Of a DNA stretch of 64,000 nucleotides, positions 30,270-32,476 are shown one piece after another. The position numbers were made by a program, and so were the translations under genes. Each line of letters begins with the position of its first letter. Position 1 is the stretch's first letter. The notes beneath the pieces were generated by a model. It was not told where the DNA came from. It was given only the letters and a program-made list of their open reading frames with translations, and did no database searches. This DNA comes from Dictyostelium discoideum (lineage: Eukaryota): contig CM000154.2 in the NCBI GenBank assembly GCA_000004695.1, positions 2,592,001 through 2,656,000 on the forward strand, in the 5' to 3' direction.

Positions 30270-32476
30270 TTAACAAATATGTTCCCATAAAATAGATAAA
30301 ACTGGTTGAGTTGGTGCAAGAGTTTCATAATCATTTGATTCATTTGGTGGAAGTGGTGTAGATTGATAGACACCATAAATTTTGAATTTTTCTAATTTAC
30401 CCAATTCATAATTACGTTCATAGATATTAAATCTACGACATTGATATCTTCCAAATTCTAAACGAAGACTATCTAAATAACCAACTGCTAAAAAGAAATT
30501 TCTTTTTCTTTGTCCAATTTTGAATAAATAATCTGGTACATCCTTATAATCTGTTTTCTCTAATGTAAATAAATCAATTCCTTTTTTTATTGAAAATTCT
30601 GCATCTGTAATAATCCATGCTGAATAATCTGGTGGTGATGGTGCAAACCTTTTATTAATAAATAAATGAAAAAAAAAAAATTAATAATTAATAATTTTAA
30701 TTTTAATTTTTTTTAAAAAAAAATAAAAAAACATACATTGCCCAATATTGATCAATTTTAACTAATTTTATTAGTGGTTGAAAAGGTGGTTCCCAAATAT
30801 TAGTATTTCTACCACTATCCATCATTAAAGTATAAATACAAACGTTATAATAAAACATATATGTTGCAACTAAAATGAAAAATAAATTTCTTAAATGTTG
30901 TCTATATTTAAATTTGGTTGGTTTTGGTGTATTATTACAATTATTATTATTATTATTACTATTACTATTTAATTTATAACTTGGTAATTTTAATTTTTCA
31001 TATTTATTATTTTGATTATTATTATTAAAGTTAATAATAAAAGAAAATAATAATTTATATAATTTATCAGAAATTAATTTTGAAAAAAGTTTGAAAACAA
31101 TTGAATGTTGAAATAAGAATTTAATTGATTTCTCTTCATCATAAATTTGACCTTTAAAATAAATTGAAACACTATCAACATAAAACATTGAATGACTATC
31201 CATAATTTCCAATTCCTCTTGTTCATCATCCCCTTTTTGATTACCATTGCCACTACCACCTAAATTATTATTTGATTTAATTTTATAATTTTGACCAACC
31301 AAGAAAAATGTTGAATAAATTTTTAAAAATAGTTGTAGTGATTGTGAAGTATTTGAATTATAATTAATTGTAATTAAATCTTTCTTTTCAATATAACTAT
31401 ATCTAATGAATGTCCAAACATCACTTGGTAAGAATGCCATACAAACAACCATTGGTATGAAAACGAATAAATATAAATTTAAACATACTCCAAAACCAAT
31501 ATGCATTCCAATAAATCCCAATATTGATATAATTCTACAAGCTGTATTATAAAATGGTGATATTAATAATAATGGTCCAACATATTCAAATATTAATGTA
31601 CCCTATTATCAAAATAATAATATTTTTATATTAGTTGATTTTATAATTTTTATTAATAATAAAAAACAATAGAAAAATAATAATAATAATAATTACTCTT
31701 GTTAAAAATATTAAAAATCTTGGAAATTGTAAAAAGAATTCAGCTAAACCATGTCTAAATTGAAGTAAATTTAAAGCATAATAAACTGCTGTATAATCTA
31801 CATGCCATGTATCTGCACTTTTAAATAATGCAGTAAAAATATAAATATTCATAAATTGTAATATGAATGCTATACCAGAACCTGAAATAAATGTATAGTA
31901 ATTTTTAATTTTATTTGAAATATTATCACCAATATTACTATTACTATTATTATTATTATTTTGAAGTTGTTGTTCTTTTAAAATTGAATCAATTGAAAAA
32001 TATTTATTTATTGGTAAAAATATTGTATAAAATAATAAAATTCTTGAATAATCATCACTACCATCAATTAGAAAATGATTTCTATTTTGAAGTGAACTTA
32101 AAAATATGAACGAAAGTATAGTTGAAAAACGAGTTTTATAACCAATTAACATTGAAAAATAAATACAACCATGTATAAAGAAAATTACAACTGCAAATTC
32201 AAATGATCCACTAATTTGGTGAAGTGAATATCTCTCTTCTTGAATAGCTGATGATCTTGGATATGATCCATAGTCTGTATAAAATTCGGTTAAATTTTGA
32301 CATCTTAATATTAAATCAACCAATAAATAAATTGAAAATAAAACTCTATATAATGATAAACTTTTATAATCTAAATAAAACCCATCTTTAATTTTTTCAA
32401 TTAATTTACCACTAATAATTGATTTTTTATTATTATTATTAATATTAATATTATTATTATTACTATATCTCATCAT
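30270..32476 (-). CDS. HTTM-domain (vitamin-K-dependent gamma-carboxylase-like) polytopic membrane protein. It has three exons: 32476..31697, 31602..30737 and 30648..30270.
   Basis: Intron 1 (31696..31603) runs GTAATT...ATAG. Intron 2 (30736..30649) runs GTATGT...AAAAG. Splicing creates '...DQYWAM|FAPSPPDYSAW...' (HTTM W.MFAP.P signature). Exon 1 carries the HTTM N-terminal pattern (LYRVLFSIYLLVDL..., ...NRNHFLIDGSDDYSRILLFYTIFLP). Confidence 0.55.

Follow-up and report, generated by a model that had tools for sequence, protein, structure and literature searches.

The 64,000-nucleotide (nt) window analysed here, positions 2,592,001 to 2,656,000 of Dictyostelium discoideum contig CM000154.2, contains the gene DDB_G0289311 on its minus strand at 32476..30270, with three exons and two canonical introns. 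Joining of the exons generates an open coding sequence of 2025 nt for a protein of 674 amino acids (aa), which contains ...KIDQYWAMFAPSPPDYSAW... and belongs to a mostly bacterial family that shares its membrane fold with the gamma-glutamyl carboxylase GGCX. Here we describe the gene and its product and consider whether the protein is a quinol- and O2-dependent membrane enzyme of the GGCX kind. The gene is made up as follows:

32476..31697, minus strand: exon 1, M1-R260, with an ATGATG start at 32476, membrane helices 1-5, K219 and W224
31696..31603, minus strand: intron 1, 94 nt, GTAATT...ATAG, 92.6% A+T, between R260 and G261
31602..30737, minus strand: exon 2, from G261 through the second base of the M549 codon, with helices 6-8 and helix 9, the thioredoxin-like domain between them and the first half of the W-MFAP motif
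30736..30649, minus strand: intron 2, 88 nt, GTATGT...AAAAG, 95.5% A+T, phase 2, within the Met549 codon
30648..30270, minus strand: exon 3, the third base of M549 and F550-C674, with the stop codon TAA at 30272-30270

The Met549 codon is split by intron 2 as AT/G (the slash marks the junction), with the A and T at 30738-30737 and the G at 30648. Removal of the intron joins ...KIDQYWAM/FAPSPPDYSAW..., and the nucleotide sequence across the junction 30737/30648 is ...ATATTGGGCAAT/GTTTGCACCATC.... Without splicing, the exon 2 frame runs to ...YWAMYVFLFFFKKN and then stops. Among all GT/AG pairs tested around intron 2 (donors in 30800-30700, acceptors in 30700-30600, at least 50 nt apart), 30736/30649 is the sole pair that leaves the frame open. 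An initial annotation of this DNA, made from the sequence alone, had given exactly this donor and acceptor and a C-terminal exon of 125 aa, which is F550-C674 of exon 3. It had also stated that the unspliced frame stops without the motif, which is so, although the peptide it gave, ending FFF, was slightly short.

The introns are 92.6% and 95.5% A+T, against 72-80% in the exons, and the G+C content of the window is 23%, which is typical of Dictyostelium. Both introns are found at identical codon positions in the Dictyostelium purpureum orthologue, where the boundaries of intron 2 read GCAAT/GTAAGT...ATAG/GTTTGCGCCA. The orthologue of Cavenderia fasciculata shares the position of intron 1 and lacks intron 2, so that the motif is uninterrupted as IDQNWSMFAPNPP. 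Likewise, the intron-less bacterial homologues encode the motif straight across (LDQSWSIFAPSPP, YQEWNMFAPYP and others). A look-up found no transcript contig on record that encodes the exact 674-aa protein. On this comparative evidence and on the existing annotation, the spliced three-exon gene is real.

Over its full length the spliced product matches EAL62785.1 / XP_636298.1 without a single difference; this entry is UniProt Q54HP6, named "HTTM-like domain-containing protein" (DDB_G0289311, D. discoideum AX4). Neither the gene model nor the family label is therefore a discovery. Gene, splice and HTTM-like label are already public in RefSeq and UniProt, the finding is mostly ordinary and carries little weight as such, and the spliced amoebozoan homologue that had been put forward as notable is this same protein. 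What is new here is where the W-MFAP motif belongs, what it probably does and that a CxxC motif has been lost across the amoebozoan clade; all of these are modest refinements. These concern the modules of the protein, which are encoded as follows:

31387..32419, minus strand: GGCX-like (HTTM-superfamily) membrane domain, residues ~20-332, eight helices, with intron 1 inside
31012..31377, minus strand: degenerate DCC1-like thioredoxin-fold domain, residues 336-457, between helices 8 and 9
30820..30915, minus strand: ninth membrane helix, residues 490-521, which would bring the chain back across to the membrane face on which the C-terminal domain lies
30639..30750, minus strand: family signature Q545-Y-W547-A-M549-F550-A-P552, residues 545-552, split by intron 2
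30273..30780, minus strand: C-terminal alpha/beta domain, residues 535-674, ~140 residues, with W560, C619 and C674

In an AlphaFold2 model of the protein (predicted local distance difference test score, pLDDT, 83.6; predicted template modelling score, pTM, 0.86) the eight helices of the membrane domain lie at residues ~37-317, with a low-confidence poly-Asn loop at ~168-195. When the model was compared with solved structures by Foldseek, the top 16 matches were all human GGCX, at probability 1.00 over ~310-320 columns, and the sequence identity was 14-16%. By this match, the multi-helix membrane fold of GGCX is present in the Dictyostelium protein. The conserved residues of the domain are N131-R132-N133, Y212, K219, W224, E266, H294, F306 and P319. 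Of these, K219 (codon 31822-31820, minus strand), Y212 and E266 are invariant in an alignment of 42 sequences, as are Q545, W547, F550, P552 and W560 further along the chain, and W224 (codon 31807-31805, minus strand) is conserved in at least 90% of the sequences. When the family profile was aligned to GGCX by hhalign (E 0.0019), K219 fell opposite K218 and W224 opposite W223; the GGCX reference sequence matched the PDB chains exactly over residues 88-729. An hhalign comparison of helices 6-8 with GGCX 236-318 was not significant. In GGCX, as seen by cryo-electron microscopy, helices 5-8 form the vitamin K pocket, which is covered by the cap domain and the loop LL9; the naphthoquinone is sandwiched between M401 of LL9 and F286, and the general base K218 is stacked on W223, with a hydrogen bond to the carbonyl of M401 (PMC12647623).

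The NCBIfam model SdpB (TIGR04033) matches residues 90-312 with E 3.8e-7. At 30 bits this is far under the cut-off of 178.4, and membership of the SdpB family was rejected; SdpB is a distant relative within the HTTM superfamily. The homologue P0013, which is found with E 5.4e-34 to the query, passes the Pfam HTTM model PF05090 at 35 bits (gathering score 27.7 bits), and many cyanobacterial homologues carry precomputed PF05090 matches. The protein belongs to the HTTM superfamily by its fold, by the SdpB match and through P0013. The initial annotation had called it an HTTM/gamma-carboxylase-like protein, and this is upheld on these three grounds, though not by a direct Pfam HTTM match.

The second module, which the initial annotation overlooked together with its loss of CxxC in amoebae, has a thioredoxin-like fold. 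In the model it is beta-alpha-beta-beta-beta-alpha, with a disordered acidic/Gly-Asn loop at 375-399. Bacterial homologues match Pfam PF04134 (DCC1-like / DUF393) in the region that aligns to it. At the point where the bacterial proteins have T-I-Y-[YF]-D-x-x-C-x-F-C, D. discoideum has T-I-N-Y-N-S-N-T-S-Q-S-L; T346 and L350 align with the cysteines of the bacterial D-x-x-C-x-x-C, an assignment that depends on the alignment. There is no cysteine in residues 336-457 of the D. discoideum protein and no CxxC anywhere in the 13 amoebozoan members (0/13), as compared with D-x-x-C-x-x-C in 212 of the 287 family proteins collected; the CxxC is kept by most of the bacterial relatives. This loss of the redox cysteines suggests that the amoebozoan DCC1-like domain is structural or regulatory and that quinone recycling would have to come from elsewhere.

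The third module begins with helix 9. GGCX also has nine membrane helices, which are followed by the conserved lumenal loop LL9 (PMC12647623). The sequence Q-x-W-x-[MILV]-F-[AS]-P is present in 266 of the 287 family proteins. Additionally, G-R-Y-x-C-R-x-W-N and the terminal W-x-H-x-C, which include C619 (codon 30440-30438) and C674 (codon 30275-30273), are conserved in eukaryotic and bacterial members. W-MFAP had been described in the initial annotation as the hallmark of HTTM. The motif, however, sits ~230 residues past the HTTM-like domain, after the thioredoxin-like insert and helix 9, and in GGCX it is a different Pfam model that covers this part: PF05090 spans 88-315, and PF22777 (VKGC_lumenal_dom) spans 361-506, including W399-D-M401-M402. 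W-MFAP is thus no hallmark of the HTTM domain; it marks the module after helix 9 and probably caps the quinone pocket. Its position, together with the non-significant alignment of helix 9 and the loop discussed below, is suggestive of an equivalent of GGCX loop LL9.

The motif segment also has a weak likeness to the Pfam family DUF5819 (PF19136, gathering score 27.1 bits). The C. fasciculata orthologue matches it with E 0.018 and 16 bits and the bacterial homologue P0010 with E 0.083, both below threshold. In a preprint of August 2026, a bacterial protein of the HTTM+DCC1-like type and an adjacent protein consisting of a helix and DUF5819 are predicted to assemble into the shape of a whole GGCX. 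In this predicted complex the helix of the second protein overlies one of the helices of GGCX, DUF5819 takes the position of the clamps, and its Leu59/Phe60 contact the pocket predicted for vitamin K (10.64898/2026.08.19.745780). In the Dictyostelium protein, the helix at residues 490-521 and, after it, the hydrophobic pair M549-F550 agree with that description, which is itself a prediction with pocket contacts taken from a model.

The layout of the family is fixed: an eight-helix HTTM-fold domain, a DCC1-like insert between helices 8 and 9, then helix 9 and an alpha/beta domain of ~140 residues. An exhaustive profile search returned 12,909 cluster representatives at E <= 1e-3, and 5,034 of these also pass E <= 1e-30. 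Most of the 12,909 are ~600 residues long and match from end to end. A word-indexed search with the family alignment returned the same proteins only, probably through saturation by low-complexity words, and a cyanobacterial homologue used as query reached further homologues. The family is mostly bacterial and its named close relatives are cyanobacterial. Among the eukaryotes, orthologues are present in at least seven dictyostelid genomes and in the transcriptomes of two protosteloids, Clastostelium recurvatum and Ceratiomyxa fruticulosa. Those of Dictyostelium firmibasis, D. purpureum, Polysphondylium violaceum, C. fasciculata and Tieghemostelium lacteum carry the same UniProt label, and that of Dictyostelium citrinum is a hypothetical protein in its NCBI record.

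Two amoebozoan paralogue groups can be distinguished. The second, group B, consists of the second copies in C. fasciculata (DFA_05415) and P. violaceum (CYY_009282) and the Clastostelium and Ceratiomyxa proteins, which have G-R-Y-L-C-R-E-W-N-W-Y in common; no group-B copy from D. discoideum was present among the matches of the homology search. In a neighbour-joining tree (579 columns, 49 sequences, 100 bootstraps), a simple distance method applied with the bacterial taxa unlabelled, the D. discoideum-type group has 100% support, the second group 97% and the two together 86%, which rises to 96% when one metagenomic sequence is included. A protein from a JGI metagenome (P0227, 688 aa), in which the CxxC site has one Cys, is placed next to the amoebozoan clade. 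The tree is indicative only, and what it indicates is that the amoebozoan members form a single clade, pointing to one old presence followed by duplication and not to recent transfer.

Two of the orthologous gene models have oddities. In the D. purpureum model (GL871129.1; L001 3521-3602) a third intron near the 3' end swaps W-x-H-x-C for an unrelated tail of 40 residues, and this is probably a mis-prediction. In the T. lacteum protein KYQ99982.1 (P0290) the region ~205-220 has a hydrophilic insertion of ~25 residues and divergent sequence in place of the helix before the catalytic lysine, which resembles a retained intron or a wrong splice site; the Logan-derived partial sequence P0007 is normal there.

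How does this protein compare with systems that are already known? The closest likeness is to bacterial, mainly cyanobacterial, HTTM/DCC1-like fusions of ~600 aa, which align from end to end at 27-30% identity with E down to 1.9e-53. The bacterial fusions, annotated as "HTTM domain-containing" or "DCC1-like thiol-disulfide oxidoreductase family protein", have the same order of modules, the same invariant residues, Q-x-W-x-[MI]-F-A-P and the two C-terminal cysteines. They differ in that they keep D-x-x-C-x-x-C, which the amoebozoan genes lack, whereas the latter have introns and low-complexity Asn/Gln inserts. The two-gene system A0A1G6IBF2 / A0A1G6IAS5 of Melghirimyces thermohalophilus has the same parts as the Dictyostelium protein. 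In this case the last module is a separate polypeptide, while in Dictyostelium it is fused, and the DUF5819 matches are sub-threshold, with none in D. discoideum. The Dictyostelium protein looks like a single-chain version of the two-gene HTTM+DCC1/DUF5819 system, judging by this comparison of parts. The bacterial carboxylase MloH, like SdpB a distant relative within the HTTM superfamily, has been cited as an HTTM region fused to a region that corresponds structurally to DUF5819 (10.64898/2026.08.19.745780).

With GGCX the protein shares the fold of the membrane domain and the K218/W223 pair, aligned to K219/W224. Unlike GGCX, it has the thioredoxin insert between helices 8 and 9 and a far smaller C-terminal domain, with no match to the Pfam HTTM or lumenal-domain models. 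GGCX has two lumenal clamps and a C-terminal domain for binding of the propeptide (PMC12647623); the Dictyostelium protein has neither the jelly-roll clamp B nor that C-terminal domain, and its own ~140 C-terminal residues form a few strands and helices in the model. The Dictyostelium protein is not known to act on Gla substrates. In a Foldseek comparison with viral models, a "desaturase" of Yasminevirus was the single significant match (E 1.3e-7, 302 columns). It has been described as a fusion of a gamma-carboxylase-like epoxidase and a desaturase, a "vitamin K epoxidase-desaturase" (10.64898/2026.03.26.714578). The VKE/VKED proteins of giant viruses (Yasminevirus, Harvfovirus and others) have an HTTM-type fold, keep the catalytic Lys and occur in an amoeba-associated setting, as here. 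However, they end after the epoxidase domain, are fused or adjacent to a desaturase and lack the segment equivalent to GGCX 374-418 (10.64898/2026.03.26.714578), unlike the Dictyostelium protein, which has helix 9, the motif and the C-terminal domain.

On this analysis, we take DDB_G0289311 to encode a GGCX-like quinol- and O2-dependent membrane enzyme with a three-module layout, at a probability of roughly 0.55. Lys219, held by Trp224, would deprotonate a membrane hydroquinone bound among helices 5-8, as in GGCX, and the reaction of the hydroquinone with O2 would yield a strong base or an epoxide that drives the chemistry of a substrate on the lumenal/extracellular face. The W547-x-M549-F550 loop after helix 9 would lie over the quinone pocket, like W399-D-M401-M402 in LL9 of GGCX. 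The small C-terminal domain may replace one of the GGCX clamps and select the substrate, with a C619-C674 disulfide probably stabilising it. In this arrangement the N-terminus and the DCC1-like domain are predicted to be cytosolic and the C-terminal domain to face the lumen or the outside of the cell. In amoebae the thioredoxin module would be redox-dead, and quinone recycling would be supplied from elsewhere. That the amoebae keep such an enzyme in active form, with the Lys/Trp pair and the W-x-M-F loop intact and the thioredoxin module disabled, is a narrower claim that we put forward tentatively.

Several results weigh against the protein being such an enzyme. The Pfam HTTM profile search that the initial annotation had itself named as its check, with the lack of a match as refutation, fails: PF05090 gave no match to the full protein at E <= 1 or to the isolated residues 21-333, with or without the poly-Asn loop, at E <= 10. 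PF22777 matched neither the query nor the C-terminal regions of six homologues at E <= 10, PF04134 neither the full protein (E <= 1) nor its middle region (E <= 10), and PF19136 did not match the D. discoideum protein. Searches of the PDB sequences by phmmer and by profile hmmsearch gave nothing meaningful. The invariant E266 is at +47 from the lysine, as compared with +45 for D263 of GGCX, and low-confidence alignments leave the two unpaired. An hhalign comparison restricted to helix 9 and the loop pairs W547-A-M549-F550 with W399-D-M401-M402 at a non-significant E of 0.27, and a broader one of the C-terminal domain with GGCX 340-560 produced no usable alignment. In addition, the loss of CxxC could mean that the amoebozoan proteins have stopped doing redox chemistry. 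Literature searches on the locus tag DDB_G0289311 and on HTTM together with Dictyostelium found nothing, and one on VKOR with Dictyostelium, bearing on whether the organism has a naphthoquinone or a VKOR, found nothing relevant; any naphthoquinone might be taken up with bacterial prey.

Is the protein then an enzyme at all? Or has a GGCX-like fold been kept for a non-catalytic, chaperone-like function, as a maturation or scaffold factor of the endoplasmic reticulum such as has been proposed for LMF1? The cysteine-free thioredoxin-like domain and the absence of CxxC from all of the amoebozoan members, set against its frequency in the family, would fit this, as would weak Pfam LMF1 matches in bacterial members (E 0.0018 and 0.007). 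These matches are under the gathering score, however, and there are none for the Dictyostelium protein. Moreover, D. discoideum retains the residues invariant in bacteria, K219, W224, E266, H294, F306 and Q-x-W-x-M-F-A-P, as would be expected of a preserved active site, and we consider a function of this sort unlikely. The quinol-driven chemistry might instead modify a membrane lipid or an acylated glycan and not a protein or peptide, which would be the enzyme reading with a different substrate. Two cyanobacterial contigs place the homologue directly after genes for an AMP-binding ligase, an acyl-CoA dehydrogenase, an acyl carrier protein and an MBOAT protein on the same strand, the GGCX-like epoxidase domains of giant viruses are fused to a sterol/fatty-acid desaturase (10.64898/2026.03.26.714578), and among viral structures the Yasminevirus protein matches best. 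Yet the contexts are few, being two related cyanobacterial ones, with chemotaxis genes in a third, and gene neighbourhood is uninformative for a eukaryote. An extracytoplasmic alpha/beta domain with two conserved cysteines is also more like a binder of soluble substrates, and lipid or glycan chemistry seems a rather improbable role on balance.

A true orthologue of GGCX would share the membrane fold and the catalytic Lys/Trp pair, as this protein does. Orthology was nevertheless rejected as very improbable: identity is 14-16%, PF22777 does not match, a C-terminal domain of ~140 residues stands in place of the far larger two-clamp lumenal region and C-terminal domain of GGCX, the DCC1-like insert is absent from GGCX, and the nearest relatives are bacterial fusions and not animal GGCX. 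Could the gene itself be an artefact, through a chance junction, a mis-assembled region or bacterial contamination? The window has four runs of exactly 100 N (3780-3879, 27712-27811, 37483-37582 and 52145-52244), and the splice rests on comparison and annotation. None of these runs is in the gene, though, and the composition is typical of Dictyostelium, with 93-96% A+T in two canonical introns that are common to other dictyostelids, in which, as in the two protosteloids, orthologues are found. Such an origin has a negligible probability and was rejected. The enzyme reading, that of a GGCX-like quinol- and O2-dependent protein, is the one that we favour over these others.

The two cyanobacterial contigs, from Anabaena sp. 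FACHB-709 (L008 1-7809) and a JGI metagenome (L013 1-13473), have, ahead of the homologue, a protein of ~320 aa of no known kind in addition to the acyl genes. In L013 a Pyr_redox_2 gene for an NDH-2-like flavoprotein is immediately upstream, and MBOAT, PMT_2 and GT2 genes are downstream. From this gene order, the cluster may be a conserved set for acyl or glycan modification with its own quinone reductase.

The sequence surrounding DDB_G0289311 has other features. Downstream, at 29152-29955 on the minus strand, is a gene for an FNIP-repeat protein (Pfam PF05725 on matching Logan contigs). In another D. discoideum assembly an automatic model, KAM9947663.1 (926 aa), fuses this gene to the HTTM-like gene by skipping over the latter's conserved ...VLSILWEHIC end. 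P0019, which had been drawn into the 90% cluster by this fused mis-annotation, is the downstream FNIP-repeat gene and was rejected as a member of the family. The N run at 27712-27811 interrupts two long minus-strand open reading frames, 25615..27828 and 27707..28714. Short islands with far more G+C than the sequence around them are located at 32693-32750, in the 5' intergenic region, and at 30061-30126, in the 3' intergenic region, and read aatccacgcgagtttaactgattccgggctggtcgaaaag and ggtgggttgggtccac ... gaatccaaacaactgggccaagtgccgac on the minus strand. An Rfam scan (E <= 1) and a tRNA scan of the gene flanks gave no match. The intergenic region shared with a divergent open reading frame contains a poly(A) run of 52 nt at 33145-33196; this divergent frame, on the plus strand at 33515-36331, has 938 codons, with an abundance of tracts of Ser, Asn and Gln.

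The value that this gene retains is in offering a way to learn the role of the relatives, numbering thousands, that the vitamin K carboxylase has outside animals. A full-length member with all three modules is present here in an organism open to genetics, in which a knock-out is routine, and the disappearance of the redox cysteines throughout the amoebozoan clade serves as a natural test of whether the core chemistry needs the thioredoxin module. The analysis also corrects a likely misconception, namely that W-MFAP belongs to the HTTM domain. If the amoebae do keep an active enzyme, it would be the first HTTM enzyme of the carboxylase or epoxidase type with a physiological role in a non-animal eukaryote, and it would act on some secreted protein, peptide or lipid.

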